Positions 1,840 to 27,205 of a DNA stretch of 64,000 bases are shown in pieces; the stretch's first letter is position 1; every line of letters begins with the position of its first letter. The DNA is from an uncultured Verrucomicrobiae bacterium (GTDB taxonomy: Bacteria; Verrucomicrobiota; Verrucomicrobiia; Opitutales; JABDGR01). The stretch covers positions 57,364-121,363 of the forward strand of contig CAVXVB010000002.1 of NCBI GenBank assembly GCA_963765205.1, in the 5' to 3' direction. A program made the position numbers and the translations under genes. Under the pieces are notes generated by a model that saw nothing but the letters and a program-made list of their open reading frames with translations, had not been told where the DNA came from and searched no databases.

Positions 1840-2036
1840 GGGGGTTGCGTGTTGCATAAGTTAGCCAGCATATTGAGAAACAGAAATTTGTAAATTGGAG
1901 AATCGGCGGCAATTCGTTAGGGAAAATCCTTAGGATTCCCGCGTGGCCCGCTTGGGGGGACTTGCGGCCGGGCAAGTTCGAGGTTTGGCTTCCTCCTTGA
2001 CTCGCCGGCGAAGGAGTGACGAAATAAAAGACCCCT

Positions 2037-2669: not shown

Positions 2670-2692
2670 GACGCCCCCCCGCCATCATCGCC

Positions 2693-5209: not shown

Positions 5210-5376
5210 AGCCGCCCGCGCCCCAGCATGAAGCCGGTGTATCGCCGGGCACTTCGGAAAATGAAGCGACCGGCTTGCCGGGCTTCCGTACCTGGCGCGC
5301 GGTTTATTGGTTCGTGGCCGGCGTGTTTGCGGCGGTCGTCGGACTGCTCACCGTGCTTTCCCGGATGTTTTCGTGA
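5206..5376 (+). CDS. Small single-TM protein, translationally coupled
   Basis: The ATG at 5206 overlaps the upstream TGA (ATGA). One hydrophobic helix (WRAVYWFVAGVFAAVVGLLTVL). Its TGA overlaps the GTG of the next gene (GTGA). Confidence 0.4.
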   Translation: MKPPAPQHEAGVSPGTSENEATGLPGFRTWRAVYWFVAGVFAAVVGLLTVLSRMFS

Positions 5377-7088
5377 ACACCCTCGACTACGTTGTGCTGT
5401 TTGGCACCCTGCTCGGCATCGCCCTTTACGGCGTGTGGCGCACGCGCGGCCGGCGCGACTTGCGCGGCTACCTGAAGGGTGACGGCCAGGCGCGCTGGTT
5501 CATCATCGGCCTTTCCGTCATTGCCACCCAGGCCAGCGCGACGACGTTTTTGTCCATTCCCGGCCAGGGCTACCAGGACGGCCTGGGCTTTGTGCAAAAT
5601 TATTTTGGCGGGCCGTTCGCGATGATCCTGATCGCCGCGGTTTTCTTGCCGATTTTCCGGCGCCTGCAGGTGTTCACCGCCTATGAATTTCTGGGCCGGC
5701 GCTTCGACAGCAAGACGCGGCTGCTCGGTGCGGCGCTGTTCCTCACCCAGCGGGGCATTGGCGCGGCGCTGACCATTTACGCGCCGGCCATCGTGCTGTC
5801 GGCCGTCTTCGGCTGGCCGCTCAATTGGACCATTATTTGCAGCGGGCTGGTCTGCGTCGTCTATACGGTCACGGGCGGCAGCGACGCCGTGCGGCTCACA
5901 CAAAAATACCAGTTGGGCATCATCTGCGCGGCGATGGTGGCGGCTTTTTTTCTTTTGCTGGCGAAGATGCCCACGGGTTTTCGCGACACGCTGGCGCTGG
6001 CCGGGGGCTTCCACAAATTGGCGGCGGTGGATTTTTCGCCCAACCTGCACACGCGCTACACGTTCTGGTCAGGCACCATCGGCGGCTTTTTCCTCGCGCT
6101 GGCGTATTTCGGCGCCGACCAGTCGCAGGTGCAGCGCTATATTGGCGGCGCTTCGCTGCGCGACGGCCGCCTCGGGTTGATGTTTCACGCGGTGTGCAAA
6201 ATCCCGATGCAGTTTTTTATTCTGCTGCTCGGCGTGCTGCTGTTTGTGTTCTACCAGTTTGCGCCGTCGCCGCTGCTGTATGCGCGCCAGTCGCGCGAAT
6301 TCCTCGCGCAAAACGCCCCCGCGGAAAAACTGCAACCCATCGAGGCGGAATTTGCGGACGCGCGCAATGCGGAGGGGCAGCAATTGCAGGCGTGGCTGGC
6401 CGCACGCCGGACCGGGGATGCCGCGTCCGCACTGGCCGCGTTGACGGCCGCGCAGACTGCAAATGCGCAGAGTGCGGACGCCCGCCAGCGCGCCGGCGAT
6501 TTACTGGAGGGCCTGCATCCGCCGACCAAGGCCAACGAGGCCGACTATGTTTTTATCACTTTCATCCTGAATTATCTGCCGCACGGGTTGATCGGCCTGC
6601 TCGTGGCCGCATTTTTTGCCGCGGCGCTTAGTTCGAAGGCCGCCGAGCTGAACGCGCTGGCTTCCTCGACCACGGTGGATTTCTACCGCCATCTCTGGCG
6701 GCGCGACGCGACGCAGGCGCACTATGTTTTCGCCTCGAAATGTTTCACGGCCTTCTGGGGGTTATTCGCCATCATCGCGGCCATCTATGCCAACCTGGTC
6801 GAGAACATCGTGCAGGCGGCGAACATCATTGGCTCGCTGTTTTACGGCCCGGTGCTGGGTTTGTTTTTAATGGCGTTTTTCATCCCGCGCGTGCGCGGCA
6901 CGGCGGCGTTTTGGGGCGCGCTCGCGGCCCAGGCGCTGGTGCTGGTGCTCTACCATTACGACGTGCTCGGTATTTCCTACCTCTGGTTTAATGTGCTCGG
7001 CCCGGCGCTGTGCGTGCTGTTCAGCCTCGTCATCCAGGCCGCCATCGGTTTTGCTCCTCCGACCCCCGCCGCGCCGGCCGCCCCATGA
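5373..7088 (+). CDS. Sodium:solute symporter (SSS) family transporter
   Basis: Multi-TM protein with SSS-like segments (GLSVIATQASATTFLSIPGQGY, YEFLGRRF). Start set to GTG 5373 (VNTLDYVVLFG), overlapping the previous stop. Confidence 0.85.
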   Translation: MNTLDYVVLFGTLLGIALYGVWRTRGRRDLRGYLKGDGQARWFIIGLSVIATQASATTFLSIPGQGYQDGLGFVQNYFGGPFAMILIAAVFLPIFRRLQVFTAYEFLGRRFDSKTRLLGAALFLTQRGIGAALTIYAPAIVLSAVFGWPLNWTIICSGLVCVVYTVTGGSDAVRLTQKYQLGIICAAMVAAFFLLLAKMPTGFRDTLALAGGFHKLAAVDFSPNLHTRYTFWSGTIGGFFLALAYFGADQSQVQRYIGGASLRDGRLGLMFHAVCKIPMQFFILLLGVLLFVFYQFAPSPLLYARQSREFLAQNAPAEKLQPIEAEFADARNAEGQQLQAWLAARRTGDAASALAALTAAQTANAQSADARQRAGDLLEGLHPPTKANEADYVFITFILNYLPHGLIGLLVAAFFAAALSSKAAELNALASSTTVDFYRHLWRRDATQAHYVFASKCFTAFWGLFAIIAAIYANLVENIVQAANIIGSLFYGPVLGLFLMAFFIPRVRGTAAFWGALAAQALVLVLYHYDVLGISYLWFNVLGPALCVLFSLVIQAAIGFAPPTPAAPAAP

Positions 7089-7852
7089 CGACGCCCCGCA
7101 TCTGTTTCGGCCAGCAACCCTGCGGATTTTTCCCGAAGCGGTTTCTGTTCGCCAAAATCGCCACGGCCCGCCGGCTCCAGGCCGAACTCGGCGGCGAAAT
7201 TGTCTTCTTCTACCACGACAGCGACCACGACCCGCGCGAAACAACGACTATTTTGCATTACCTCCGCACCGGCGAGGCGGCGCGCCTTAACTTCGCCTTC
7301 GCCAATAAAATCCAGCGCAAGTGGTCACCCCTCTACCTCAAGCGGGTTTTGCCCGACTGGCACGCGAACACGACCCGACAATTACCGGCTTTTGTCGACC
7401 AGCGCTGGGTCGCGGCGTTCAAAAACATCGCACTGACGAACGTCGCCGACTTTTGCCTTGAGATGTATCGCGCAATGGGCCTACTCGACCATATCCGCGT
7501 CGTGCGCTCGAGCGACCCGGCCGTGCGCCGCGCGGCGTGCGAGGTGGCGGATTATTTTGTGGACGTGCCTTTTCAGGGCGAAATCGCGCGGGCGCGGGTG
7601 GTCGCGGGCGCGCTGCAATTGCACCAGGGCGGGAGTTGCCATTTGACGCTGCCGCTGGTTGACTTGACGAAGGAGCAGGTCAGCCCCGCGCGCGACACGC
7701 GCCTGCGCTGGATGCAGTCCGTCGTGCGCTGCACGTACTACGTGGCCGGCCTCGGCGAACAAGCCTACCTGAACCGCGCCGACGCCCCCGACGTCACCTT
7801 TATCAACCGCGACGAAATCGAACGATCCGATGAAGCCTACACCGACACCTAA
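7085..7852 (+). CDS. Short BshC-like protein (about 255 aa; candidate minimal bacillithiol cysteine-adding enzyme homolog)
   Basis: ATGA overlap with the SSS stop. ICFGQQPCGFFPKRFLFAKI...VFFYHDSDHDPRE parallels the BshC N-terminal motifs I recall (GQQ.GL..GPLY...K ... FW.A.EDHD..E). YVAGLGEQAYL parallels BshC AGPGE..YW. Sits directly upstream of the bshB-like and bshA genes. Confidence 0.45.
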   Translation: MTTPRICFGQQPCGFFPKRFLFAKIATARRLQAELGGEIVFFYHDSDHDPRETTTILHYLRTGEAARLNFAFANKIQRKWSPLYLKRVLPDWHANTTRQLPAFVDQRWVAAFKNIALTNVADFCLEMYRAMGLLDHIRVVRSSDPAVRRAACEVADYFVDVPFQGEIARARVVAGALQLHQGGSCHLTLPLVDLTKEQVSPARDTRLRWMQSVVRCTYYVAGLGEQAYLNRADAPDVTFINRDEIERSDEAYTDT

Positions 7853-8534
7853 TAACGCGACTCTCCTGGCCTTTGGCGCGCACCCCGATGATATTGAATT
7901 CGGCTGCGGCGGCGTCATCGCGCGCGAGACCCGCGCGGGTTGCGCCGCGCACTTCGTCGTCTGCTCGCGCGGCGAGGCCGGCACCAACGGCACGCCGCGC
8001 CAGCGCGTGGCCGAGGCCAAAAGCGCGGCCGGCATCCTCGGCGCAACCCTCGAATTTCTCGAGCTGGACGGCGACGCGCACCTCGAAGTGCGCGCCGCGC
8101 ACGCGCTGAAACTGGCGCGCATCCTCCGCCGCGTGCGGCCCGCCGTGGTGCTTGCGCCGACGGTCGATCCCAACCAGCATCCCGACCACTGGCGGCTGGG
8201 CCAGCTCGTGCGCGACGCCGCGCGCCTCGCGCGTTACGGCGGCTTAAAGGAATTGCGCCCGCTCGCCCCGCACACGATTGGCCGGCTTTTCTTCTACGCC
8301 GTCACCCCCGACGCCGAGCCGCCCGGCGCGCTGCCGATGCTGGTGGACATCTCCCCGCCCGCAATCATGCAAGCCTGGACCGCCGCGATGAAAGCCCACG
8401 CCTCGCAAATGAAAACCCGCAACTACGTCGAGTTCCAACTCGCCCGCGCTAGAGTGCATGGCATGAGGGCCGGGCTGAAATTCGCGCAGGCGCTGTTTCC
8501 GAACGACCCACTCGTTTTGGATTCTATTATCTGA
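7830..8534 (+). CDS. bshB: PIG-L family deacetylase, BshB-like
   Basis: LLAFGAHPDDIEFGCGGVIA...SRGEAGTNG...HPDH motifs. The neighbouring bshA supports the assignment. Confidence 0.7.
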   Translation: MKPTPTPNNATLLAFGAHPDDIEFGCGGVIARETRAGCAAHFVVCSRGEAGTNGTPRQRVAEAKSAAGILGATLEFLELDGDAHLEVRAAHALKLARILRRVRPAVVLAPTVDPNQHPDHWRLGQLVRDAARLARYGGLKELRPLAPHTIGRLFFYAVTPDAEPPGALPMLVDISPPAIMQAWTAAMKAHASQMKTRNYVEFQLARARVHGMRAGLKFAQALFPNDPLVLDSII

Positions 8535-8559
8535 TTTTGAACTTTAATGCATTTTTCTT

Positions 8560-9240
8560 GTGTCGATCACTACCAAAATTAACGCTTTTCAAAAGCGGGG
8601 TCAAAGCGATCAGCATCATCGCTATTACTCCTGGGTATATTGCTATCGCTATTTTCAAAGTTCTTGGAACGATGGAGGTTTCACATCCAAAGACGAAGCT
8701 GCATTGCAGCTTGGTTTTTATCTGGCGAGTTGGGGTATGTATAGGGGATCAGGCTTCCTTTTAAAAAAAGCGTATACCATCCACATTGATACTGTTCAGT
8801 TGTTATTAGAAAAACGATGGCGCCCCCTTTGGTGCACTGAATTTGGGGTCCGTTTTAACGATCAGGAATTGATAGACCTTGCCTTGAAGCTTTTTAAAAG
8901 CATTCATCAGTGCTATCGTTCTAATGATTCTAGTATTCCAACAAACCAACCTAGTGACACGCTAATCACAAAAATTCTTTTAGGGACGGTTGGCTGCTTG
9001 CCGGCTTGTGATCGTTGCTTTGTCGCGGCTTTTAAGCATGAAAAAAACCCATTTTCTTCTGTGAACGAAAAATTTATTTACCGACTTATTGAATTCTGCG
9101 GGGAAAATGTAAGAGAGCTGAACGCCATCCAGCGTTCTATAGAGCAAAAGGACGGGTTTCGTTTCCCTATTATGAAGCTAGTAGATATGTATTTTTACCA
9201 AGTAGGTCGCGACTTGGATTCAAATTCGGAAAAAGACTAA
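8560..9240 (+). CDS. Hypothetical protein on a low-GC insert
   Basis: 226-aa ORF starting at GTG 8560, about 42% GC (hand count of 8561-8680) against about 60-65% in the flanks. Its TAA overlaps the bshA ATG (TAATG). Motifs HHRYYSW..CYRYF, LASWGMYRGSGFLL and ILLGTVGCLPACDRCF look family-like but I cannot name the family. Confidence 0.6.
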   Translation: MSITTKINAFQKRGQSDQHHRYYSWVYCYRYFQSSWNDGGFTSKDEAALQLGFYLASWGMYRGSGFLLKKAYTIHIDTVQLLLEKRWRPLWCTEFGVRFNDQELIDLALKLFKSIHQCYRSNDSSIPTNQPSDTLITKILLGTVGCLPACDRCFVAAFKHEKNPFSSVNEKFIYRLIEFCGENVRELNAIQRSIEQKDGFRFPIMKLVDMYFYQVGRDLDSNSEKD

Positions 9241-10379
9241 TGACTACCTCTCGTCCCCTCAAAATCGGCATCACCTGCTACCCGTCGGTGGGGGGGAGCG
9301 GGGTGTTGGCGTCGGCGCTGGGTGAGGAGCTGGCGGGGCGGGGGCATGAGGTGCATTTCATCAGCTACGAGCGCCCGTTCCGCATCCCGCACGATTTGCC
9401 GCGGCTACAATTCCATCCGGTGGTCATCAACGACTACGGGCTGTTCAAATACCCGGACTACACGCTGCCGCTGTCGGTGAAAATGGCCGAGGTCAGCCGC
9501 GACTACGGGCTGGACGTCCTGCACGTCCATTACGCGGTGCCGCACGCGACGGCCGCCATCCTCGCGCGCGACATGCTGCCGCCGGAGCGGCGCCCGCGCG
9601 TCGTCACCACCCTGCACGGCACGGACACGACGCTGCTCGGGCGCGACGCGGGTTACGGCCCGGCCATCCGTCACGCGCTCGAGCGCTCGGACGCGGTCAC
9701 GACCGTCTCTGCGTTTTTGGAAAGGGAGACGCGGCGCCTGCTCGCCGTCGAGCGGCCCATCGAGGTCATCCACAATTTCTTTGCCCCGCGCGCGCCGAAA
9801 CATTCGCGCGAGGAAGTGCGGCGCGAACTCGGGCTAAAAGACGAGGCGCTGATTTTGCACGCTTCGAACCTGCGGCCGCTCAAGCGCATTGACCTCCTGC
9901 TGGAAACGGCAGCGCGCCTGCGCCCACGCGAGTCGTTCAAGCTCTTGATTCTGGCCGGCGACGATTTTGGCCCATTCCAAAGCGAGGTGGCGCGGCTGGG
10001 CCTAACCGACCGGGTCATTGTCCGCGAGCGCGTCACCGAGATGGAAGACTACCTGCAAGCCGCCGACGTGGGGCTGTTCACCTCGGAGACGGAAAGTTTT
10101 TGCCTGGGCATTCTGGAAGCGATGTTTTTCGGCTGCCCCAGCGTGGCCACGGCCGTCGGCGGCATTCCCGAGGTAACGATTTCGGGCGAGACGGGCCTGC
10201 TCATCCCCTTTGGCGACGCCGACGCGTTGGCTCGCGCGGTCGAATCGCTCCTGCACAATCCCGCCCGGCGCGCCGCGTTCGGCCAAGCGGCCCAAGCCCG
10301 CGCGCGCGAAAAGTTTACCGCCGCGACGATTGTCCCACTCTACGAGGATTTATACCGGCGGGTTTGTGCGGTGAAATAG
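9240..10379 (+). CDS. bshA: N-acetyl-alpha-D-glucosaminyl L-malate synthase (bacillithiol glycosyltransferase)
   Basis: LKIGITCYPSVGGSGVLASALGEELAGRGHEVHFIS...TTLHGTDTTLLG closely matches B. subtilis BshA (KIGITCYPSVGGSG...GHEIHFIT...TTLHGTDITVLG) as recalled. Confidence 0.85.
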   Translation: MTTSRPLKIGITCYPSVGGSGVLASALGEELAGRGHEVHFISYERPFRIPHDLPRLQFHPVVINDYGLFKYPDYTLPLSVKMAEVSRDYGLDVLHVHYAVPHATAAILARDMLPPERRPRVVTTLHGTDTTLLGRDAGYGPAIRHALERSDAVTTVSAFLERETRRLLAVERPIEVIHNFFAPRAPKHSREEVRRELGLKDEALILHASNLRPLKRIDLLLETAARLRPRESFKLLILAGDDFGPFQSEVARLGLTDRVIVRERVTEMEDYLQAADVGLFTSETESFCLGILEAMFFGCPSVATAVGGIPEVTISGETGLLIPFGDADALARAVESLLHNPARRAAFGQAAQARAREKFTAATIVPLYEDLYRRVCAVK

Positions 10380-16368: not shown

Positions 16369-18765
16369 TTAAGGTTTCAGGGCGGCGGAAGGGGGTGCAA
16401 CCGGGGCGGCTGCGATGGGGGCGGCTGCGACAGCCGCCGTCCCCGCCTCCGGTTGATCTTGCACGTTTTTGCCCAGGCGCTCCAAGTAGGCGATGACGGC
16501 GACGATTTCCCGGTCCGGATCGGTGTAGAGGTCTTTACCAGGCTTCTTGAGTTCGTCGGCGATGCCTTGGGCCTGCTCCTTGGCCTGGCGGTCAATTTCC
16601 GCCGGCGTGAGCGTCAACGGGTAGGGTACACCCAACGTGCGCAAGGCGTTGATTTTTGACGGGAGCGAGGCGTAGTCGGTGTCGTCATTATACAGCCAGG
16701 TGTAGCGCGGCATGATCGAGCCGGGTGAGGTGGAGCGCGGGTCGGCCAGATGGAGGAAGTGCCAGTCCACGGAGCGTGCCCCGCCTTCGCGGGCCAAGTC
16801 GGGGCCATTACGTTTTGAGCCCCACTGGAACGGGTGGTCATAAATGCTTTCGCCGAGGCGGGAATAATCGCCGTAACGCATCACGTCCGGCAGGAGCGTG
16901 CGAATCATCTGCGAATGGCAGAGGTAGCAACCTTCGCGGATGTAGATGTCACGGCCGGCGAGTTCAAGCGGGGTAAAAGGCGTTTCAATGCGGCCTTCCA
17001 GATTTTTGTCGGTGTCGAGCGTGACGGTGGGCAAAATTTCAATTGTGCCGCCAATGGCCACCGCGATAAAAGTCAGCACGCCGAACGAGAGTGAGCTGCG
17101 GATCAGCCGGTCATACCACTGGCTCCAGGTGGCACCGGACAATTCGAAGTGAACAATGGCCAGGGCCGTCCATACCGTGAGGCTGACCAAACCGGCGATG
17201 CTCCAGAAGCCGCCGCCCAGCAGCCACAGCGCGAAGCTGACGATGATGGCAAAGCAATAAACCACCGGCGCGTTGAGGAACGTCCCCCCAAAGCTGAGGC
17301 GCGCGACCGCCGCGACTGTGGGAATTTGAATGGTGCCGTTGACCGGCTGGCCGGAGCGCGCGGTGTGCCAGATATTATAGACCAACATGAAAAACCCGCC
17401 TAGGTAGAGCGTGCCTCCGACCAAGCGCGTGGCGAGCATCGGATGGATGGCCTGGACTGTTTCGAGAAACTGATTTTTCAGCGCCAGGCCGTCCGGGGTG
17501 AGCTGGTTGAGCATCAGCCCCTGCGTGATGCCGCTCACCCACATTGAGCCGACGTAGAGCAGGATGCCGACCATCCCGATCCAAAAGTGCAGGTTGGCCA
17601 GGCTGGTCGAATAGAGCTTGGTGTTCCACAGGCGCGGAGCTAGCCAGTAGAACATGCCTGCGGCCATAAAGCCGTTCCAACCGAGCGTGCCGCCATGCAC
17701 ATGTGCGATCACCCAATCCGTATAGTGAGCAAGCGCGTTGACCGACGGAATGGCCAGCAGCGGGCCTTCGAAGGTGGACATTCCATAGAATGTCACACCG
17801 GCGGCGAAAAATTTTAAGACGGGATCTATGCGGACCTTGTCCCACGCGCCGCGCAAGGTGAGCAAGCCGTTCAACATGCCGCCCCAGCTCGGTGCCCAGA
17901 GCATCAGGCTAAAGATCATGCCAAGCGTTTGGAGCCAGGCGGGCAGCGCGGAGTTGAGCAGGTGGTGCGGCCCGGCCCAGATGTAAACAAACACCAGCGA
18001 CCAGAAGTGGACCACGCTAAGGCGGTAGGAATACACCGGCCGCTCCGCCGCCTTGGGCAGGTAATAATACATGATGCCCAACACCGGCGTGGTCAAGAAG
18101 AAGGCCACCGCGTTGTGCCCATACCACCATTCGACAAGGGCGTCCTGCACCCCGCCAAACACCGGGTAGCTCTGCAGCATGCTGGTGGGAAGCGAGAGGT
18201 GGTTGATGACGTAAAGCATCGCCACCGTGATGATGGTCGCGATGTAGAACCAGAGGGCCACATAGAGCGTCGGCTCATTCCGCCGCGCCAGCGTCCAGAA
18301 AAAATTCACCGCAAAGATTATCCAGATGAGCGCGACGGCGATGTTGATGGGCCAGATCAACTCGGCGTATTCCTTGCCGCGGGTCAGCCCCAGCGGCAGG
18401 GTGATGGCCGCGGCCACAATGATGAGCTGCCAGCCCCAGAAGTGAATCCACGACAGCGTCTTCGAGGCCAGGCGGCATTTGCACAACCGCTGGGTTGAGT
18501 AATAGATGCCCGCGAAAATCATGTTGCCCACGAATGCGAAGATCGCGCCATTGGTGTGCAGGGGGCGGATGCGACCGAAGGTGATCTCCGCGATGTTGAG
18601 ATTCACCTGCCAAAAATTGAGCTCGGCGGCGATAAGCACGCCGATGGCCATCGCGACGATGGACCAGAAGATGGACGCGCACATGAACCACCGCACGATG
18701 CGATCGTCGAATTCAATCGTCGTGAGGCGGGCGCCGGATGATGAGGGTTGGGTGGAATCAGTCAT
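16369..18765 (-). CDS. ccoNO: cbb3-type cytochrome c oxidase, fused subunits I+II (CcoNO)
   Basis: ATG 18765 (MTDSTQP). The heme-copper subunit I body (HFWGWQ, WYGHNAV, HYTDWVIAHVHGG) is followed by a CcoO-like CYLCHSQMIR heme-c domain in one ORF. Confidence 0.9.
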   Translation of the reverse strand: MTDSTQPSSSGARLTTIEFDDRIVRWFMCASIFWSIVAMAIGVLIAAELNFWQVNLNIAEITFGRIRPLHTNGAIFAFVGNMIFAGIYYSTQRLCKCRLASKTLSWIHFWGWQLIIVAAAITLPLGLTRGKEYAELIWPINIAVALIWIIFAVNFFWTLARRNEPTLYVALWFYIATIITVAMLYVINHLSLPTSMLQSYPVFGGVQDALVEWWYGHNAVAFFLTTPVLGIMYYYLPKAAERPVYSYRLSVVHFWSLVFVYIWAGPHHLLNSALPAWLQTLGMIFSLMLWAPSWGGMLNGLLTLRGAWDKVRIDPVLKFFAAGVTFYGMSTFEGPLLAIPSVNALAHYTDWVIAHVHGGTLGWNGFMAAGMFYWLAPRLWNTKLYSTSLANLHFWIGMVGILLYVGSMWVSGITQGLMLNQLTPDGLALKNQFLETVQAIHPMLATRLVGGTLYLGGFFMLVYNIWHTARSGQPVNGTIQIPTVAAVARLSFGGTFLNAPVVYCFAIIVSFALWLLGGGFWSIAGLVSLTVWTALAIVHFELSGATWSQWYDRLIRSSLSFGVLTFIAVAIGGTIEILPTVTLDTDKNLEGRIETPFTPLELAGRDIYIREGCYLCHSQMIRTLLPDVMRYGDYSRLGESIYDHPFQWGSKRNGPDLAREGGARSVDWHFLHLADPRSTSPGSIMPRYTWLYNDDTDYASLPSKINALRTLGVPYPLTLTPAEIDRQAKEQAQGIADELKKPGKDLYTDPDREIVAVIAYLERLGKNVQDQPEAGTAAVAAAPIAAAPVAPPSAALKP

Positions 18766-18790
18766 GGTGGAATAAGGAAAAATGCTGGAT

Positions 18791-18976
18791 TTAACGGGTG
18801 GTAGGCGGGCTGGGCGGCCGCTGGCGCGCGGGCACGGGCGTTTCGTCCTCGAGTGGCAGGAGGGACGCTCGCTCGGCGCTGGCAAACGGATGGGAGCGCC
18901 AGTCGCGCAGGAACAGCCACGCGAACATCCCGGCGAGCAGCATGCTCAGGAACATGGTTAGGAAAAGGACTTGCAT
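18791..18976 (-). CDS. ccoS: CcoS-like cbb3 assembly protein
   Basis: 61 aa with an N-terminal TM helix and an acidic tail (LLPLEDE), immediately upstream of ccoNO. Weak sequence match to canonical CcoS. Confidence 0.5.
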   Translation of the reverse strand: MQVLFLTMFLSMLLAGMFAWLFLRDWRSHPFASAERASLLPLEDETPVPARQRPPSPPTTR

Positions 18977-20199: not shown

Positions 20200-20235
20200 A
20201 AAAGAGCGCCCCCACGGGGAATCGAACCCCGATTT
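20200..20235 (-). repeat. att repeat: displaced 3' fragment of tRNA-Glu
   Basis: aaaagagcgcccccacggggaatcgaaccccgattt is identical to 27000-27035. Sequence beyond 20235 does not fold as a tRNA. Confidence 0.85.
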
Positions 20236-20306
20236 CTATACCGCAGGGGTAGGGATTGGTAACTCCCTCTGGATTGGACACTAACAAACGCTGTTGACAG
20301 CATTTG

Positions 20307-20327
20307 CTTGTTATAGTTTGCTATAGT
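20307..20327 (+). repeat. 21-bp repeat R21 (cttgttatagtttgctatagt), copy 1
   Basis: Identical copy at 26943-26963. Contains TATAGT twice and ends 1 nt before the int ATG. Confidence 0.85.
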
Positions 20328-20328
20328 C

Positions 20329-21504
20329 ATGGCAAGCATCTACAAACAACCGGGTTCGCGTTTCTGGTTTGCGCGCTATCGGCTGCCCGATGGCAAGTGG
20401 ACTGCGAAGACAACCAAACAAAAAGACCGGGGCGCGGCGCTACGCACGGCCTATGAGTTAGAGGGGCTGGGAGCATCGGCAGTGGAGTTATCGCCTGTTG
20501 GCGCGGCCTTGGCGCGCAACGTGCGCGAGATTTACGAGCGCGCCACCCGGCAAAAGGTGGAAGCCGTCACTGTGGGCGATTTCCTGCGCCAGTGGGTTGC
20601 TCGCATCGAAGCCACAAAATCTGCCAACACCGGGAGCCGATACAAGCAAATTGTGGACTTGCTGCTTGCCTACCTGGGGCCGCAAGGCGAGCGCCGCAAC
20701 CTTGCCAGCCTCACCCCGACTATTTTGCAAGGCTTCATTGACAGCCAATCCGCCACCGGCAAGGGCGCGCACACTGTCGCGCTGGCCGGAAAAATCCTAT
20801 CCATCGCCCTAAAGTCCGCCGTGCGCGCGGGCTTGTTAGAGCGCAACCCCGCCGGACAGCTTGACCTGCCCGCCTTTGCGATGAAAGAGCGCGAAGAATT
20901 CAGCGCCGCTGAATTGGAATCCCTACTGGCAGAAGCACGCGGCACGGAATGGGAAACCGCCGTCCTGTTGGGCGCGTATTGCGGCGCGCGGCTGGGCGAT
21001 GCCACTTCTATGCGTTGGGAAAACGTTGACCTGGCCGGGGCCAAAGTAACCTTCACCCCGCAAAAAACCTCCCGGCGGGGCAACAAGGTGGAATTGCCGA
21101 TACCCCCGCGCGTGCTCGCGCACTTGGAAGGCTTGGCGGGCCGCGAGGATGCCCAGCACAACGAATTTATCACGCCGGGCTTGGCCGCGCGGGGGATTGG
21201 TGGCCGCACCGGGTTAAGCCTTAGCTTCCGCGCCCTCATGCGCCGCAGCGGCGTTTCGGGCAAAACCACCGCCAGAGCCAAGGACAGCGCCGCCCGTTCG
21301 TTCAGCACAAAATCGTTTCACTCGCTTAGGCATTTTTTCATTGCCAATATGCACCGTGGGGGAGCCGACGCGGAAACCGCCCAAGCGGGCGCGGGCCACA
21401 GTGACGCAAAAGTGCATGAGCGTTACGATCACGACAAGCGCGACCGCGTGGCGCGCAATCTAAAAGCCGCCGTGGAGAATATCCCCGGCGCGAAAGGGAA
21501 ATGA
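20329..21504 (+). CDS. int: Tyrosine recombinase / phage-type integrase
   Basis: N-terminal arm-binding-like GSRFWFARYRLPDGKW. C-terminal HSLRHFF...GHSDAKVHERYDH (H-x-x-R ... H ... Y). Confidence 0.9.
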   Translation: MASIYKQPGSRFWFARYRLPDGKWTAKTTKQKDRGAALRTAYELEGLGASAVELSPVGAALARNVREIYERATRQKVEAVTVGDFLRQWVARIEATKSANTGSRYKQIVDLLLAYLGPQGERRNLASLTPTILQGFIDSQSATGKGAHTVALAGKILSIALKSAVRAGLLERNPAGQLDLPAFAMKEREEFSAAELESLLAEARGTEWETAVLLGAYCGARLGDATSMRWENVDLAGAKVTFTPQKTSRRGNKVELPIPPRVLAHLEGLAGREDAQHNEFITPGLAARGIGGRTGLSLSFRALMRRSGVSGKTTARAKDSAARSFSTKSFHSLRHFFIANMHRGGADAETAQAGAGHSDAKVHERYDHDKRDRVARNLKAAVENIPGAKGK

Positions 21505-22400
21505 TTTCACCCATGAAAGACACTCCCGAAAAAATCACTTTGCCGCCAATTCCGCCGGGGGCTGGGTTGGTTTACCAACGGTTCTCCTTTGTCAAACCAG
21601 CGCCGCCAACGCCAGAACCAGCGCCGCCAGAGCCAGACTATCCGGCAGGATGGCCCTGGGAACTTATGGCGGACAGAGAAAAGCGGATGCCGGATTGGAA
21701 GATGCGGGCGGACGCCGAAAAGGCCGATTTCACTGATGGGGTTGCTAAGGGATGCGTGACCGCACTTCACCAAGGAGCCCGCAAAGGCAACATAATTGCC
21801 ACTATTCATCTGCTCGAATTAAGCCGGGATATTTGTGAGCGGCTCGCGTCTCTGGCAGCCGATTCTGGCTTACACGCTCAATTGCGTTCTTTGGCTTGTC
21901 TTTACCCAACCTTTCCAGTTTTGGTGGGGCGCAATAGTCTTAACAAGGGCCGTGAGAAAAATCTTTTAGAAAGTCTGCACGTCGGCGAATCTGTCCCTTT
22001 CAGCAACCCTTACCGAAAGCGCCCAGGGAGGCGAGTCAGTTTTTCAAAAAATATCGTAAACCAATGGGCGAGGCTGATTCTCAATCATATTTTATTTTAT
22101 CATCAATTTCTCGCGCTGGGTGGAAAGCTGGATAAACCGTGGCCCGCTTGGCTAACAGCGGCAATGCCGATTCCTCCGCTGAATGAGAGCACGGCCAAGG
22201 ATTGGCTAGAGATTGCGTGGGCTTTAATCATGGAAGAAACCGGCCAGCACCCCGAGGACATTGACTGGTTAAGAGAAATTGGCGAAAAGCGCGGACGCAA
22301 AGCAAAGGGAACACCGGCCAGCAAAAACAAAGCGATTCGCCGGGGCCTAAAGGAGACATTGGGCGAAGCCATTGAACGCCTTGCGCGGATTGCTGGATAA
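21501..22400 (+). CDS. Hypothetical protein (island)
   Basis: 299-aa ORF with an ATGA overlap on the int stop and a Pro-rich N-terminus. No family recognised. Confidence 0.55.
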   Translation: MISPMKDTPEKITLPPIPPGAGLVYQRFSFVKPAPPTPEPAPPEPDYPAGWPWELMADREKRMPDWKMRADAEKADFTDGVAKGCVTALHQGARKGNIIATIHLLELSRDICERLASLAADSGLHAQLRSLACLYPTFPVLVGRNSLNKGREKNLLESLHVGESVPFSNPYRKRPGRRVSFSKNIVNQWARLILNHILFYHQFLALGGKLDKPWPAWLTAAMPIPPLNESTAKDWLEIAWALIMEETGQHPEDIDWLREIGEKRGRKAKGTPASKNKAIRRGLKETLGEAIERLARIAG

Positions 22401-22479
22401 AAAACTCCCGAGTTTATTTTAATAAAGTAGGTAAAAAGTTTCGTCAATTCAGTGGCGGAGATAGGTGTATAAAGTGGGC

Positions 22480-22785
22480 ATGAGCAAATCATCTCTGCCC
22501 GCACGCGACGGCGGTTTTACAACAGTCGCGCCAATCGTGGCCGCGCCCGTGGCCACTATCGCCCCGGAATTTTTACGACTCCCGACGGGGCGCAATGTCG
22601 AGCCGTTAAGCGGCCTCCGCAGAAGCCAGCTTTATAACCTGATTGCCGAGCGGAAAATCCAAGCGATTTCCCTACGCCCCAGAGGCAAGGCGCGCGGAAC
22701 CCGGCTGCTTGTCGCGCAATCAGTCAGAAATTATTTGCACGGCCTCGCCATTGAACAGAACCCGCCGCAGACTATCACACAATAA
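22480..22785 (+). CDS. AlpA/excisionase-like HTH protein
   Basis: LSGLRRSQLYNLIAERKIQAISLRPRGKARGTRLLVAQSVRNYL resembles AlpA/Xis-type winged HTH. ATG at 22480. Confidence 0.55.
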   Translation: MSKSSLPARDGGFTTVAPIVAAPVATIAPEFLRLPTGRNVEPLSGLRRSQLYNLIAERKIQAISLRPRGKARGTRLLVAQSVRNYLHGLAIEQNPPQTITQ

Positions 22786-22875
22786 CCACTAACCTATTTG
22801 CCCACCACCGGGCGAGCGTTGCCAAAACAATGCCCGCCCCCAGCGTCAACTGGAAGGCGGGCGAAACCAATCACT

Positions 22876-24042
22876 ATGGAAACGATACAAAATACAACGT
22901 CACCACGTCAAGACACAACGCCACAATCCAGCGGCGATGCTACCAAACCACCACCGCCACCTGACGCAATTTGTGCCGCTGCCGCAGCGCCGGAGAACGC
23001 CCCACACACTCCGCCACCGGGAGCGGGTCGCATTATCCACTTCCCGCCACCGTCAAACTTGCTTGGCTCACTCGATAAGCGCCCCAAAACTGTTTCCTTG
23101 GACACGATTAAACGGGCGGTGTTAAACGAGTCCACCTTTGATGCGTTGGATATTCCCCATCGGCCCGCCTTGCTGGGCGATTGGTTTTTGGCGGGCGATC
23201 TGGGGTTTATCTATGCCCCGCGCGGCGGGGGTAAAACGTGGATTGCTCTGGCGTTGGCGCGCGCGCTGGCAGAAGGCGGCAAGTGCGGGCCGTGGCAAGC
23301 TCACGTTCCCGTCAAATGCCTCTACGTTGACGGCGAAATGCCCTTGGATGAAATGCGAAAACGCAACCAGTCCTTGCGCGGCGCTGCCGGGGATAATCTG
23401 ATTTTTCTTTCCCACCAACGAAACTTTGACGTTGGCGTGGATAACCTTTGTTTGACTGACCCGGAGTCGCAAAACGCCCTCACAGAGTTTTGCGTCGAGA
23501 CGGGAATTAAAGTATTATATCTTGACAACCTAAGCACGCTGTTTACCCGCGTGGAAGAAAACAAAGCCGATGCCTGGCGGGATTCTGTCGAGGGTTGGCT
23601 TTTGAAATTGCGGCGGCACGGTGTTGCCGTGGTCATCATCGCCCATGCCGGGCGCAATGGAGAGATGAGGGGAACGAGCAAGCGCGAGGATTGCGCCTTC
23701 TGGCAAATCTGTCTTGAACCAATGGAAAAAAGCGGTGAAGGAGTGCGCTTCACCTCCCGCTTTACTAAAAACCGCAACGCGACGGAAGACCCGCCGCCCC
23801 TCAAATGGCACTTCCGCCCCGATAACGGGCGCGTGGTGATTTCATGGGAAGAAGCCGACGCCTTGCAAATTCTGCGCGCGCATATTGAGGGTGGCTTGGA
23901 AACGTGCTCTGAAATCGCCGAGGATATGGGTATTGCCAAATCCACGGTTTCCAAACTCGCCAAGCAGGCGGAGCGGGCGGGTTGGTTGAAAATCACCGGC
24001 ACCGGCAACCAGCGCCATTATAAGCTCAAAACCGATGCCTGA
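22876..24042 (+). CDS. RepA/AAA_25-like RecA-fold ATPase with C-terminal wHTH
   Basis: Walker A APRGGGKTWIALALARALAEGG, Walker B-like VLYLDNLSTLF, and IIAHAGRNGEMRGTSKRED. The C-terminal MGIAKSTVSKLAKQAERAGWL is HTH-like. Confidence 0.7.
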   Translation: METIQNTTSPRQDTTPQSSGDATKPPPPPDAICAAAAAPENAPHTPPPGAGRIIHFPPPSNLLGSLDKRPKTVSLDTIKRAVLNESTFDALDIPHRPALLGDWFLAGDLGFIYAPRGGGKTWIALALARALAEGGKCGPWQAHVPVKCLYVDGEMPLDEMRKRNQSLRGAAGDNLIFLSHQRNFDVGVDNLCLTDPESQNALTEFCVETGIKVLYLDNLSTLFTRVEENKADAWRDSVEGWLLKLRRHGVAVVIIAHAGRNGEMRGTSKREDCAFWQICLEPMEKSGEGVRFTSRFTKNRNATEDPPPLKWHFRPDNGRVVISWEEADALQILRAHIEGGLETCSEIAEDMGIAKSTVSKLAKQAERAGWLKITGTGNQRHYKLKTDA

Positions 24043-24054
24043 CCCGGCTTCCCA

Positions 24055-24216
24055 TCGGAAACGGAGCCATGCCATTCGTTTCCTGTTTTCCAAAAGTCAT
24101 GTTTGCGACTCGTTTCCGCGTTTCCCCTATGAGGAAACAAAAAGCGCCCTCTCGTTTCCACTTTCGTTTCCACTCCGTTTCTCGTTCTCCACCTATAGGC
24201 AGTAAACAGGAAACGA
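24055..24216. repeat. Iteron-like field (TCGTTTCC / GGAAACGA)
   Basis: Direct copies at 24076, 24110, 24118 (GCGTTTCC), 24152 and 24164, plus degenerate copies at 24175/24182. Inverted copies at 24057, 24133 and 24209. Confidence 0.6.
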
Positions 24217-24227
24217 GCATCCCCGCC

Positions 24228-25235
24228 ATGCCCCTAGACCTTGCCCGCTTGGAAAACGCCCGCCAGCGCGGCAACCGCCTGACGGCCCGCTGCCCGGCCT
24301 GTGCCGAAACCGGGTCCGACCGCAAAGGCGAGCACTTGGCGATCTTCGCGGATGGCCGGTTTGCCTGCGTTATGAATCCCGGCCCGGCGGGCGAAGTCCA
24401 CCGCCAGCGCATTTTCGATCTGGCCGGAATCAAAGAGCACCCCGGCCAGCCCGCCCGCGCCCCCGTCATTGCCCTACAGCGGCCCCAACCCGCCCGGCCA
24501 GCCCTTCACCTTCCGCCGTTGCGCCGATTGACCGTGGGGGAAATGCTCGCCATTATCAAGTTGCGCGGCTGGCCGATGGATGCCGGGTTGGAATTGCTCA
24601 CGCGACGCGGCTTGCTCTGGCAGGGCAACGTCTTTGACGGCGGGGAGCACCACCCCGCTTGGATCGTGACAGATAGTGCCCGCCGCAACGCGCAAGCCCG
24701 CCGTCTTGACGGCCAGCCCTGGCAGGGCATCAAAGGCGCAAAGGCCAAAAGCCTGCCCGGCTCGCAAGCATCCTGGCCGATAGGCGCGCCGGAAATCGGC
24801 GCGCGCCCGTTCGTCATGCTTTGCGAAGGCGGCCCTGATTTTCTCGCGGCGCTGCTTGTGGCATGGTTTGAAAGCGAGCGCATGGCCGGATTCAGTGTCG
24901 AGCACGCGGCCCCGGTTTGCCTGTGCGGCGCGGGTCAAACGATTCCCCCCGATGCGCTGGATTTCTTCACGGGCAAGCACGTTAGAATTTTCATCCATGC
25001 CGACGATGAAGGAAACGCGGCGGCAAAACGCTGGGCCGCGCAACTTTACCAAGCGCGCGCAAAGAGCGTTGACGGCTTCGACTTCGCCGGACTCACCCGC
25101 CCCGACGGCCAGCCCGTCAAAGACCTGGCCGACTTTGCCAAGTTACTTGACCCGGAAGACCCGCCAGTTGCGCGGGCGCTGGCCGGATTGGCGACGAAGG
25201 CAGAGGCGGAGCGGTTCGCGGCGTTATCGTCGTGA
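24228..25235 (+). CDS. Zn-ribbon + Toprim-like primase-related protein
   Basis: ATG 24228 (MPLDLARLE). CPACAETGSDRKGEHLAIFADGRFACV Zn-ribbon. Toprim-like FVMLCEGGPDF and IFIHADDEGNAAAKRWA. Confidence 0.6.
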   Translation: MPLDLARLENARQRGNRLTARCPACAETGSDRKGEHLAIFADGRFACVMNPGPAGEVHRQRIFDLAGIKEHPGQPARAPVIALQRPQPARPALHLPPLRRLTVGEMLAIIKLRGWPMDAGLELLTRRGLLWQGNVFDGGEHHPAWIVTDSARRNAQARRLDGQPWQGIKGAKAKSLPGSQASWPIGAPEIGARPFVMLCEGGPDFLAALLVAWFESERMAGFSVEHAAPVCLCGAGQTIPPDALDFFTGKHVRIFIHADDEGNAAAKRWAAQLYQARAKSVDGFDFAGLTRPDGQPVKDLADFAKLLDPEDPPVARALAGLATKAEAERFAALSS

Positions 25236-25898
25236 TTATTTCCAAATCATGGTGTATTTTACAATGACGGTTTGCTTCAAAACCTTATTGGACATTACAT
25301 CGTAACTGAGAAGTTTGCTCGTTTGTTCCTCGATGGCATAGGCCGTCAATTTTTTCCCTTGTTTGAGCCAATTGAGAAATTGAGTTTGCGTCGGGCCGGG
25401 TTCGGCACCGACTTCCTGATAGCATTTGATCGTTCGTTTCGCACCCAAAACGGTGATGTAGGAATACGGGTCAGTCGCCACAACCCAAAGAATGCCGCAA
25501 TCTTGATTATCCACCCAGTCTTTGTGCGAAGCGATGGTTTTTAACGCGAAATCGTCGCAAATAAAGAGCGTTGGGCTGACCACCTGCGTCACCTGAATGT
25601 CCATGAAATCCGCGTTTTCCAACGAGGGCTTGACAATGATCGCGCCGGTTTTATCCGTCGTGTAGTAACTTTGGACATCGGCAAAGAGTTCGAGCAATTT
25701 ATCCCGAGTTTCGACGGCACCGCGCTGGCCCACTTCGCTTACATAAAATGTTCTTTCCTGAATTTTTGGCTCCGGCGCAGGGGATGGAGCGCCGCTATAA
25801 TTGACGCCCGCTTGGCTCCCCCCAATGCTGCGCAAGCCAACCTGTCCGAGCGCCGGTAAAGTGATAAGACTTAATGCTAGGCAAGTCAGGATTTTCAT
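25236..25898 (-). CDS. Secreted hypothetical protein (island cargo)
   Basis: ATG 25898 gives MKILTCLALSLITLPALGQ (signal peptide). Visibly AT-richer. Abuts the stop of the primase-like gene. Confidence 0.5.
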   Translation of the reverse strand: MKILTCLALSLITLPALGQVGLRSIGGSQAGVNYSGAPSPAPEPKIQERTFYVSEVGQRGAVETRDKLLELFADVQSYYTTDKTGAIIVKPSLENADFMDIQVTQVVSPTLFICDDFALKTIASHKDWVDNQDCGILWVVATDPYSYITVLGAKRTIKCYQEVGAEPGPTQTQFLNWLKQGKKLTAYAIEEQTSKLLSYDVMSNKVLKQTVIVKYTMIWK

Positions 25899-25927
25899 GG
25901 AGGAAAAAAGATGGGTAAGTGTCGCCC

Positions 25928-26698
25928 TCATGCCGCCTCTTTGGTCGTGCTTTCCGTCAGCCCCGCCGCAAACCTGTTCTTTTGGAAGCGCGCAAACATC
26001 TTGTTCACCTCGTCGCGGTAAATCGCCCGCTGCTCCGCCCGCGTCTTGTCTTCCGCCCGCACGATGAAGCGGTCAAAGAGACTGAAAATCTCGGTGGCGA
26101 TGCCGCCATGAATCTTAGCCAGTTCGCCCGTCATTTGCTCAATTTTGGCATACTGGCCGGCCTTCTCCGAAACCGCCAACGCCGCCAATTCCAGTTTGCG
26201 CATGGATTCAGAGACGGCGGTGAACTGTTTTTCAAGCGTGTTCAAAATCCGGGCGTTGGGCGCGGCCCGCGCTTCCTCCGCTTCCAACCGCGCCGCAATT
26301 TTGCCCGCCCGCCGCCGCGTGGCCGTGAGTAGCATCCCAAAGTCCATTTCCTCGACTGGCAGCCCCAGCAGCGGCGGGGAATCCGCCGGGTTATCTCTCC
26401 GGGGAGACAACGGCATGGACATCGGCAGCATCCGGGCATCCGCCGGGGGCAACTCCGGTTGCAAACCGGGGCTGGGGCCATCGGCGGCAGCCTCAATCCG
26501 ATCCCGCACTCCCGCGTTCAAATCGCGCTGGATATGCTGCTCTAGCCATCCCAGCAATTTGCCCGGCTCAGTCACCGGGCATTCATCCCCGGCAGCCCGG
26601 CCTTTAGCTACCCAAAGCCTAAGTGTCCGGGTTGTCACCCCATAGAGGTCAGCCCAATCTTGCCGGGATTGCGGCTCTAATGAAATTTCCGCTTCCAC
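25928..26698 (-). CDS. HTH + coiled-coil protein, Nu1-like N-terminus (possible small terminase/packaging or regulator)
   Basis: SRQDWADLYGVTTRTLRLWVAKG parallels lambda Nu1 NKKQLADIFGASIRTIQNWQEQG as recalled. The rest is helical and charged. Confidence 0.5.
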   Translation of the reverse strand: MEAEISLEPQSRQDWADLYGVTTRTLRLWVAKGRAAGDECPVTEPGKLLGWLEQHIQRDLNAGVRDRIEAAADGPSPGLQPELPPADARMLPMSMPLSPRRDNPADSPPLLGLPVEEMDFGMLLTATRRRAGKIAARLEAEEARAAPNARILNTLEKQFTAVSESMRKLELAALAVSEKAGQYAKIEQMTGELAKIHGGIATEIFSLFDRFIVRAEDKTRAEQRAIYRDEVNKMFARFQKNRFAAGLTESTTKEAA

Positions 26699-26942
26699 TG
26701 GGGAAAATTAACCCTCCCTCATAGCGGAAGCAAGGAAATTTGTTTTTCCAAGCCCCCGCGCGAAAACCTCCAAGGAGTGCCCAACACCCTGGGGGGCCAT
26801 AAACCTTTTCAAAGAGAATCCCTAGCACCCCTAGTGGGGGCGGGGGGTCAGGGCGGGGGCAACCTACCTGCCGGAGATTGTGGGCGAAGGGGTAGCCCAC
26901 TGGCCCGGCAGTAATGGAAAACACTACTGCACACTAGCTGGC

Positions 26943-26963
26943 CTTGTTATAGTTTGCTATAGT
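26943..26963 (+). repeat. 21-bp repeat R21, copy 2
   Basis: Identical to 20307-20327. Lies 36 nt from the att core. Confidence 0.85.
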
Positions 26964-27006
26964 TTTGGCGCTGAAATCTTCGTAAGTCTTTGATTATCAA
27001 AAAGAG

Positions 27007-27078
27007 CGCCCCCACGGGGAATCGAACCCCGATTTGAAGAATGAGAATCTTCCGTCCTAACCGTTAGACGATGGGGAC
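27007..27078 (-). tRNA. tRNA-Glu (anticodon CUC)
   Basis: Hand-folded cloverleaf: acceptor GTCCCCA/TGGGGGC, anticodon stem GAAGA/TCTTC, loop TTCTCAT, T-arm CGGGG-TTCGATT-CCCCG. No encoded CCA. Confidence 0.9.
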
Positions 27079-27170
27079 AAGCTGCCAGAAGCGAGAAGCT
27101 AGAAGATAGAAGGCAGAATGCCAAGCGCGAAGAAGCGGATTCATCCAAATGGCATCTTTCTTTGTTTCCA

Positions 27171-27198
27171 TTCTAGCTTCTAGCTTCTAGCTTCTAGC
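27171..27198. repeat. Tandem heptamer (TTCTAGC)x4
   Basis: ttctagc repeated four times, ending 7 nt before the ATG at 27206. An inverted partner, agaagctagaag, lies at about 27094-27105. Confidence 0.9.
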
Positions 27199-27205
27199 TC
27201 CCACC

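Follow-up and report, generated by a model that had tools for sequence, protein, structure and literature searches.

What kind of element occupies a tRNA-Glu gene of this genome, and by what means might so small an element pass between cells? The window, a stretch of 64 kb of DNA from an uncultured bacterium of the Opitutales (Verrucomicrobiota), contains an island of about 6.8 kb that is bracketed by direct repeats of the 3′ end of the tRNA gene, and encodes an integrase, two predicted replication proteins and, at its far end, a protein related to the small terminase subunit (TerS) of phages. In silico, the island is most likely an intact, site-specifically integrated, self-replicating phage satellite that resembles the phage-inducible chromosomal islands (PICIs) or the PICI-like tycheposons, a reading to which we assign a probability of about 0.6. 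Of phage-derived functions just one was recognised in it, a putative homolog of the small terminase subunit that works with the large terminase subunit (TerL) of the lambda type (GpA).

The limits of the island are set by a direct repeat of 36 nt, perfect at 100% identity according to the repeat finder, the two copies of which, attL (20200..20235) and attR (27000..27035), have a spacing of 6,800 nt and enclose an interior of 6,764 nt (20236-26999). The attR copy represents the 3′ end of an intact tRNA-Glu(CUC) gene, the predicted integration target (27007..27078, minus strand), while attL is a partial copy of the same 3′ end, so that the tRNA is intact at one end of the element. ARAGORN places this tRNA, with the anticodon CTC, at 27006-27078, and Rfam at 27007-27078 (57.1 bits); the repeat therefore comprises the last 29-30 nt of the tRNA and 6-7 nt downstream of it. 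A chance origin of a perfect 36-mer repeat within 64 kb can be ruled out. The G+C content (GC) of the interior is 0.575 versus 0.615 in the left and 0.613 in the right flank, and a value as low was not reached in any of 219 equally long windows taken outside the island. An island in tRNA-Glu(CUC), less GC-rich than its surroundings, had been proposed in a preliminary description of this DNA, and both points are borne out.

The first gene, int (20329..21504, plus strand), begins 93 nt from attL and encodes a tyrosine integrase of 391 aa, in line with the earlier proposal of a tRNA-targeting enzyme. It matches Pfam Phage_integrase (4.6e-12), with a SAM-like N-terminal domain, and phrog_1 (7.8e-46); the catalytic domain is complete, and the R...HxxR...H...Y motifs (ARLGD, HSLRH and HERY) are visible in the translation. 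Directly before the start codon of int, 72 nt from the att core, there are two tandem decamers, TTGTTATAGT TTGCTATAGT (20308..20327, plus strand), and a second copy of the pair (26944..26963, plus strand) lies 36 nt from the core at the other end. Exact decamers of the form TTGYTATAGT occur in four copies in the window, all of them at the two ends of the island. In a circular form of the element the att core would have one pair at 36 nt and the other at 72 nt on its two sides, an arrangement typical of the arm-type sites of integrases, and both pairs are candidate sites of this type; the pair at 20308-20327 may also overlap the int promoter.

The centre of the island encodes a predicted replicon, the main parts of which, a RepA/AAA_25-like ATPase and iterons, had been correctly recognised beforehand. 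The repA gene (22877..24042, plus strand) is predicted to code for a RecA-fold (AAA_25) helicase or initiator with a C-terminal winged helix-turn-helix domain. The AAA_25 match has an E-value of 2.8e-24, several winged helix-turn-helix families are matched at residues 349-412, PHROG primase/helicase and DnaB-like families are matched as well, and a Walker A motif (GGGKT) is present in the translation. The start of the gene is uncertain: the open reading frame (ORF) extends from 22798, its first ATG follows at 22877, and conservation sets in at about residue 90-107. Because the homologs and the deposited versions of 307 and 327 aa span only the C-terminal three quarters, the initial 90-107 residues or so of the ORF are probably untranslated. 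In total 346 homologs of RepA were found, mostly in metagenome-assembled genomes (MAGs) of Verrucomicrobiota. Between repA and the primase gene lies an iteron field with a GC of 0.52 (24057..24215), a candidate origin of replication, which within 159 nt contains seven of the 21 exact copies of CGTTTCC in the window, five of them direct and flanked by two inverted ones, along with degenerate copies.

The gene that follows (24228..25235, plus strand) codes for a protein of 335 aa, identical to the deposited protein P0123, for which neither Pfam nor NCBIfam gave a match. Its predicted structure, an AlphaFold2 (AF2) model with a predicted local distance difference test score (pLDDT) of 94.1, based on an alignment of 40 sequences, suggests a primase of the DnaG/T7 gp4 type, consisting of an N-terminal Zn ribbon and a Toprim catalytic core. 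In PDB, Foldseek ranked the primase of T7 gp4 and the catalytic core of E. coli DnaG highest (probability 1.00, E-values of 7e-5 to 4.5e-4), and the invariant residues include the Zn-ribbon cysteines C22, C25 and C47 and the acidic Toprim residues E200, D204 and D259. The Zn-ribbon/Toprim fold given in the preliminary description is in this way confirmed at the level of prediction, but the start is at 24228 and not at 24069. The protein shares 48% identity with the Zn_ribbon_DnaG protein of a related island (L003), and its 413 homologs come mostly from MAGs of Verrucomicrobiota and from metagenomes. The Zn ribbon alone (residues 12-74, 51-55% identity) was also found in about 75 viral contigs of IMG/VR (L091-L168), and the catalytic domain matches just two contigs there, L089 and L090. 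Because the ribbon recurs largely without the catalytic domain, it seems to have been shuffled as a module and to be common to this protein and phage primases.

The gene terS (25928..26698, minus strand) encodes a protein of 256 aa with an N-terminal helix-turn-helix (HTH) domain, a disordered linker and a four-helix C-terminal domain, which is assigned as a putative TerS homolog of the Nu1 position. It matches phrog_57 (terminase small subunit) with an E-value of 4.9e-5. A word-indexed protein search retrieved the protein itself and one other, 62% identical, whereas an exhaustive HMMER search of 1.8 billion representatives yielded 100 full-length remote homologs; 21 of the 51 aligned members of this family match phrog_57 (best 1.6e-7), and the pairwise alignments with the island protein extend over the full length and both domains. 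In all four readable genomic contexts (homologs P0244, P0249, P0251 and P0253) the gene is located directly upstream of, or overlaps, a gene for a GpA-type TerL, which contains GpA_ATPase and, where recorded, GpA_nuclease. On the three long contigs TerL is followed by a gpW-sized gene, a portal protein of the Phage_portal_2 family, an S49 protease and more head genes, capsid genes included. In lambda the head genes are arranged in the order Nu1-A-W-B-C, and since the contexts of the homologs follow this order, the family holds the position of the small terminase. The relation to Nu1 is expressed in this position upstream of GpA and in a weak MerR-type HTH signal.

Other searches with this protein were less productive. 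As a single sequence it retrieved nothing from IMG/VR or GenBank phages, its profile produced only coiled-coil noise against PDB, and for a scan of loci the alignment of the family diverged too strongly. The 62%-identical relative (P0002) falls into the same 90%-identity cluster as P0345, which is encoded on an ENA contig of 19,779 nt. Upstream of terS there is a non-coding stretch of 245 nt (26699..26943) that contains no ORF and is a candidate for both the terS promoter and a packaging (cos/pac) site; in lambda, cos lies upstream of Nu1.

On the island, terS is followed by sp231 and not by a gene for TerL. The TerL, portal, protease and capsid proteins of the homolog contigs have no similarity anywhere in the window, in which genes for TerL, portal, capsid, tail, holin, connector and lysis proteins were likewise not found. 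The earlier statement that capsid, tail, lysis, relaxase and type IV secretion genes are missing agrees with the results of the Pfam, PHROG and NCBIfam scans. The presence of TerS without TerL is an accepted hallmark of the hijacking of packaging (PMC10085698; 10.1101/2020.12.28.424599). The same gene content could in principle be left by the decay of a lambda-like prophage of which int, the replication genes and Nu1 were retained; int, replication and TerS are all functions compatible with a phage, and the homologs of TerS otherwise sit in lambda-like head modules. Such an origin is nevertheless very improbable, as the two 36-nt att repeats match perfectly, none of the seven ORFs is broken and they follow each other closely, with overlaps of 4 nt, and fragments of TerL, portal or capsid genes are absent. 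The same backbone is moreover found in islands of similar size without phage genes, which indicates that the small size is the native state.

If the island is a satellite, its cycle would start when a helper phage infects the cell or is induced there, which would switch on the AlpA/HTH_17-like regulator. Int would excise the element, aided by the product of orf299 and/or the small HTH protein as directionality factors, to form a circle in which the attP core is flanked by the TTGYTATAGT arm sites. RepA would bind the CGTTTCC iterons and, together with the primase, amplify the circle. TerS of the island would then bind an island-specific site, probably within 26699-26943, and recruit the GpA-type TerL of the helper, by which the island DNA, probably as multimers given its size of 6.8 kb, would enter full-size capsids of the helper. 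The moved island would finally re-integrate into the tRNA-Glu gene of new cells. [quoted passage not shown]

A number of observations weigh against the satellite reading. Excision, replication and packaging are predicted only. The homology of TerS is remote, at 25-30% identity, and when its AF2 model (pLDDT 84) was compared with PDB and BFVD by Foldseek, none of the matches was significant. Neither the island protein nor any of the 51 family members matches a TerS or Nu1 model of Pfam (Phage_Nu1); the Nu1-like HTH/coiled-coil protein of the preliminary description, on which the satellite idea turns, nevertheless gains real support, above all from the genomic context of its homologs. A helper phage is not visible in the window, which contains no prophage, and the attP junction, the circular form that had been put forward for checking, was absent as an exact pattern from IMG/VR. 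The search for packaging-site repeats upstream of terS gave only short G-rich repeats and no cos-like site. Terminases of the GpA type cut cos sites that are about one genome apart, a spacing that a unit of 6.8 kb would not readily provide. Because these terminases are cos enzymes and a cos-like site was not found upstream of terS, the packaging of multimers appears to be the weakest step of the proposed cycle. The last of these points comes from related islands: a hidden Markov model (HMM) of the TerS family matched none of the 86 that were sampled.

These relatives share a recurring backbone that consists of a tRNA, int (about 400 aa), a gene overlapping int, a small HTH_17 protein, a helicase and a primase of the family found here, followed by variable genes. 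The targeted tRNAs vary and include those for Leu, Ser, Asn, Ala, Arg, Met, Gly and Thr, among others. The variable part of L003 (8132-15659) comprises a type I restriction-modification system and DarT/Macro (DarTG), and that of L002 (11381-17692) an AAA_15/AAA_21 ATPase, DUF3226, DUF4145 and SocA_Panacea, both of which are regarded as cargo directed against phages; nucleases and proteins of unknown function are found in others. Because none of the 86 islands carries TerS, the gene lies outside the backbone of the family. The island of the window is a member of this common family of predicted islands, unusual in having a putative phage packaging gene instead of cargo.

The wide occurrence of the backbone without TerS, and the defence or other cargo of its relatives (as in L003), would also be expected of an integrative, self-replicating, tycheposon-like 'hitcher' island of the cargo type. 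In that case Int, RepA and the primase would provide excision and plasmid-like maintenance, spread would occur by vesicles, transformation or generalized transduction, and TerS would be a captured or domesticated HTH protein, for instance a regulator, with no role in packaging. The remote similarity of TerS, the lack of a structural match for it, and the fact that neither a helper phage nor a packaging site is seen are consistent with this explanation. We consider it unlikely, since the TerS homolog has, over its full length, kept the two domains of its phage counterparts, terS is intact and located beside attP like the packaging genes and sites of PICIs, and a lone TerS is itself the recognised sign of hijacking; almost no cargo is present, in addition, that could account for the maintenance of the island. 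The satellite interpretation is supported as a hypothesis, and from the gene content we infer both induction and packaging by a helper. More tentatively, the island might be the first satellite lineage of the PICI type to be recognised in Verrucomicrobiota, and belong to a large family of tycheposon-like islands, so far undescribed, that target tRNA genes of uncultured soil, peat and freshwater bacteria. The backbone of this family would alternate between defence or other cargo and a hijack module, in which a TerS of a previously unannotated family redirects the cos-cutting GpA terminases to the 6.8-kb genome; this broader view is regarded as possible rather than probable.

The remaining genes of the island are less readily assigned. 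The gene orf299 (21501..22400, plus strand) encodes a protein of 299 aa, and its start overlaps the stop codon of int as ATGA (21501-21504). The protein had been listed as unknown, and it has indeed no match in Pfam, PHROGs, NCBIfam, PADLOC, PDB or GenBank phages. A 4-nt overlap of int with the next gene also occurs in the islands L003, L179, L207 and L223. In PICMIs, iolg (integrase-overlapping gene) and alpA are both required for excision (PMC10803314); as the positional analogue of iolg, orf299 is a candidate for an excision accessory factor. At 21595-21637 the gene contains a 21-nt tandem duplication (AACCAGCGCCGCCAAAGCCAG, present twice), which gives rise to a Pro-rich PAPPTPEPAPPEPD stretch.

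The small gene downstream (22480..22785, plus strand) encodes, from the ATG at 22480, an AlpA/HTH_17-like DNA-binding protein of 101 aa, a weak candidate for an activator or excisionase. Its match to Pfam Phage_AlpA (E = 0.055) is below the threshold, and the 101-aa version has no match. Genes at the same position in related islands match HTH_17 (1.4e-7, 8.9e-7 and 6.6e-6), and they align with the protein of the island over a common LRLP...GL.RS..Y.L...I..LR.RG..RG pattern. Its earlier designation as AlpA/Xis-like is a weak call. The gene sp231 (25236..25931, minus strand) encodes a protein of 231 aa with a signal-peptide-like N-terminus (MKILTCLALSLITLPALGQ) and overlaps the stop codon of terS by 4 nt. 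It has the lowest GC of the island (0.49), is matched in none of the libraries, GenBank phages and PDB included, and is a probable accessory or cargo gene. PADLOC detected no defence system on the island, only marginal domain matches.

Two of the seven proteins, those of orf299 and sp231, thus have no detectable homologs or domains, and an integrase combined with RepA/primase modules is also known from mobilizable elements. An integrative mobilizable element with an unrecognised relaxase or oriT, for instance in orf299, could exploit the type IV secretion system that a conjugative element in the same cell provides. This explanation is improbable: Pfam, NCBIfam and PHROGs gave no signal of a relaxase, a coupling protein or a type IV secretion system, the DNA of the whole island has no similarity to any of 72,556 plasmids, and the TerS homolog would be left unexplained. 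The position of orf299, with its ATGA overlap with int, matches that of an accessory gene for excision and not that of a relaxase (PMC10803314).

The genes on both sides of the island are ordinary chromosomal ones, so that no bigger mobile element encloses it, and the concern that its ORFs might belong to a larger conjugative element or be chromosomal genes proves unfounded. The left flank contains a cbb3 oxidase cluster (a fused ccoNO, FixG and a P-type ATPase) and glycosyltransferases; the right flank contains the DUF5069 gene followed by genes for HtpG, Obg, cytochrome b and other proteins. The fused oxidase gene appears, from its translation and the Pfam matches of its neighbours, to be a single 838-aa CcoN-CcoO ORF (16369-18885) beside FixG and the CcoI-type P-type ATPase. 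Between the tRNA-Glu and DUF5069 genes there are two tandem arrays of heptamers, at 27084-27123 (GCCAGAA-like, 5.6 copies) and at 27171-27199 (TTCTAGC, 4.1 copies), which form an imperfect inverted repeat with arms of 31 nt that are 87% complementary and separated by 48 nt. An exact look-up of a protein of the right flank found only a Logan contig of the same strain, 1.6 kb long, which breaks in these heptamer arrays. No contig was retrieved by exact look-ups of a 168-aa protein of the left flank or of TerS as deposited (P0001). The flanking genes are present in run ERR11630400 at 99.5-100% identity.

An independent assembly in Logan includes a contig of 6,824 nt that encodes the RepA of the island and the full 256-aa TerS (proteins P0343 and P0344). 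This contig was dropped as evidence of a circle, its length being equal to the interior of 6,764 nt plus twice 30 nt of the att repeat. With a repeat of 36 nt and an assumed k of 31, its ends are read as a break of the de Bruijn graph, and it is silent on circularity.

Occupancy of the tRNA site was compared between species, which were found by a scan with the DUF5069 protein and represented by one genome each; the scan also places the host in the Opitutales. As in other related Opitutales, the tRNA-Glu(CTC) gene adjoins the DUF5069 gene in the six closest species (82-90% identity of DUF5069). The site is unoccupied, with no island genes after the tRNA, in L010, L011, L013 and L014, and over about 9.7 kb L011 and L013 lack another att copy; the count does not include L012, which was traced only as far as the tRNA. 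In the remaining species, L009, about 70 nt beside the tRNA resemble the attR-side end of the island, after which the similarity ends, and the tandem-decamer element has the same layout with another sequence (TTGTTAGTGT TTGTCAGTGT). A different putative element with a related att system is present there at the same tRNA. The presence and absence of an insertion that the preliminary description had proposed to look for is therefore found between species, together with repeated use of the tRNA-Glu site.

Some details of the same comparison concern the ends of the site. A DUF892 gene is located within about 0.5 kb after the tRNA in L013 and L014, and 19 kb away in the window; a larger element extending to the left was considered on these grounds and rejected, since what lies between is housekeeping in nature, the cbb3 oxidase cluster included. 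The tRNA-Glu(CTC) gene has an encoded CCA end (GCGCCA or GCACCA) in L010, L011, L012, L014 and L015, and the end GCGCTC or GCACTC in the window (at 27000-27010) and in L009, which are both occupied, and also in the unoccupied L013. The att copy of the element seems to replace the encoded CCA of the tRNA, and the end in L013 may be the scar of a past occupant. In L015 (78% identity of DUF5069) 8.2 kb (1663-10001) separate the tRNA-Glu(CTC) gene from the DUF5069 gene on the 5′ side of the tRNA, which could be the result of a different insertion or a rearrangement.

Verrucomicrobiota are abundant in soil, freshwater and the gut, but little is known of the phages and mobile elements that they harbour. 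The island is a concrete satellite candidate for this phylum, compact and cleanly delimited, with a complete predicted replicon and a lone small terminase. Its predicted helper is a lambda-like phage with a GpA terminase, a Phage_portal_2 portal and an S49 protease. Two protein families missed by current libraries were identified along with it, the DnaG-fold primase, which comprises over 400 members and is not covered by a Pfam model, and the small terminase of the Nu1 position, with about 100 representatives. The recurrence of the backbone at many tRNA genes in metagenomes extends the picture of tycheposons and PICIs beyond Proteobacteria, Firmicutes and Cyanobacteria. The concept of a satellite is not changed by the island, which fits the established paradigm through in silico findings.

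Among known systems, P4 shares with the island a tRNA-targeting tyrosine integrase and replication driven by its own primase/helicase, and has a regulator of the AlpA family, for which the island offers a weak candidate. It differs in having a single fused alpha primase-helicase, no terS, and P2-type cos sites combined with redirection of capsid size. Matches to sid, psu, delta, epsilon or alpha of P4 were not found on the island in PHROGs or Pfam, and Psu appeared only as noise of the fold search (E > 4). Thus, of the satellite gene logic initially compared with both P4 and PICIs, the PICI-type part is supported, while P4, with its different hijack genes and without terS, is a poor comparison.

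The VEIMEs (PMC9618062) are similarly small and encode an integrase, a primase/helicase, AlpA and sometimes RepA-like and small terminase homologs, but no capsid genes. Some of them were mapped to marine Verrucomicrobia, and the Verrucomicrobia-associated module 3 mostly contains serine recombinases, in contrast to the tyrosine integrase of the island. VEIMEs are defined by concatemers found in virions, whereas the island is known here from its genes. With these elements and with tycheposons, some of which bear terS (10.1101/2020.12.28.424599), the novelty claimed at first for such a host was overstated. The phylum is not wholly new for satellites; new is a PICI-like or tycheposon-like candidate in the Opitutales.

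The PICMIs of Vibrionaceae (PMC10803314) resemble the island in having six to seven genes and the layout of int, an ATGA-overlapping gene, alpA (on the island a weak candidate) and a primase, although the analogy of the overlapping gene is one of arrangement only. They also lack capsid-remodelling genes, and their packaging as concatemers is a plausible answer to the problem of size. They differ from the island in their integration beside fis, in primases of the DUF3987/DUF5906 type and in that a terminase gene was not reported; the island instead has a tRNA-Glu target, a primase of the DnaG/T7-gp4 fold, a RepA helicase with iterons, and TerS.

A PICI is defined by an integrase, a regulator, a primase-replicase, a capsid morphogenesis component and terS, and by the absence of tail, holin and portal genes (PMC10085698). 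On the island three of these components are clear, namely the integrase, the primase-replicase with an origin, and terS; the regulator is weak, capsid morphogenesis is absent, and none of the forbidden genes is present. The order of genes, with int, the candidate regulator, the primase/replicase and origin, and terS at the far end, is canonical, and a dedicated att site is used. For the regulator, a homolog of alpA, merR or stl is called for, to which the island offers the protein with the subthreshold Phage_AlpA match and HTH_17 equivalents in its relatives. The primase-replicase corresponds in function to Pri-Rep of PICIs, but consists of two proteins of other families. No ORF of the island has a head-related match in Pfam or PHROGs, and the capsid morphogenesis component is also missing from Type B PICIs and from the Staphylococcus aureus pathogenicity islands (SaPIs) (PMC10085698), so that the composition follows a Type-B-like PICI logic. 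The island is about half the usual size of a PICI, and more than 99.9% of known PICIs are from Proteobacteria or Firmicutes (PMC10085698).

Tycheposons (10.1101/2020.12.28.424599), like the island, have a tyrosine recombinase that acts at the 3′ end of a tRNA gene and leaves a partial copy of it, an excisionase-type HTH protein (on the island a weak candidate), a primase/helicase module and no other virion genes. In them a single backbone is combined either with cargo or with a single packaging gene, encoding TerS or the major capsid protein (MCP), and the verrucomicrobial family splits likewise between cargo, including defence, and terS. The PICI-like tycheposons differ in their host, Prochlorococcus, and its habitat, and in a size of typically 10-20 kb compared to 6.8 kb. 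Distinct features of the island are the split into an AAA_25 RepA and an unannotated DnaG-type primase, and a TerS family tied to GpA terminases. Taking these likenesses and differences together, the class of PICI-like tycheposons is the best overall match for the island.

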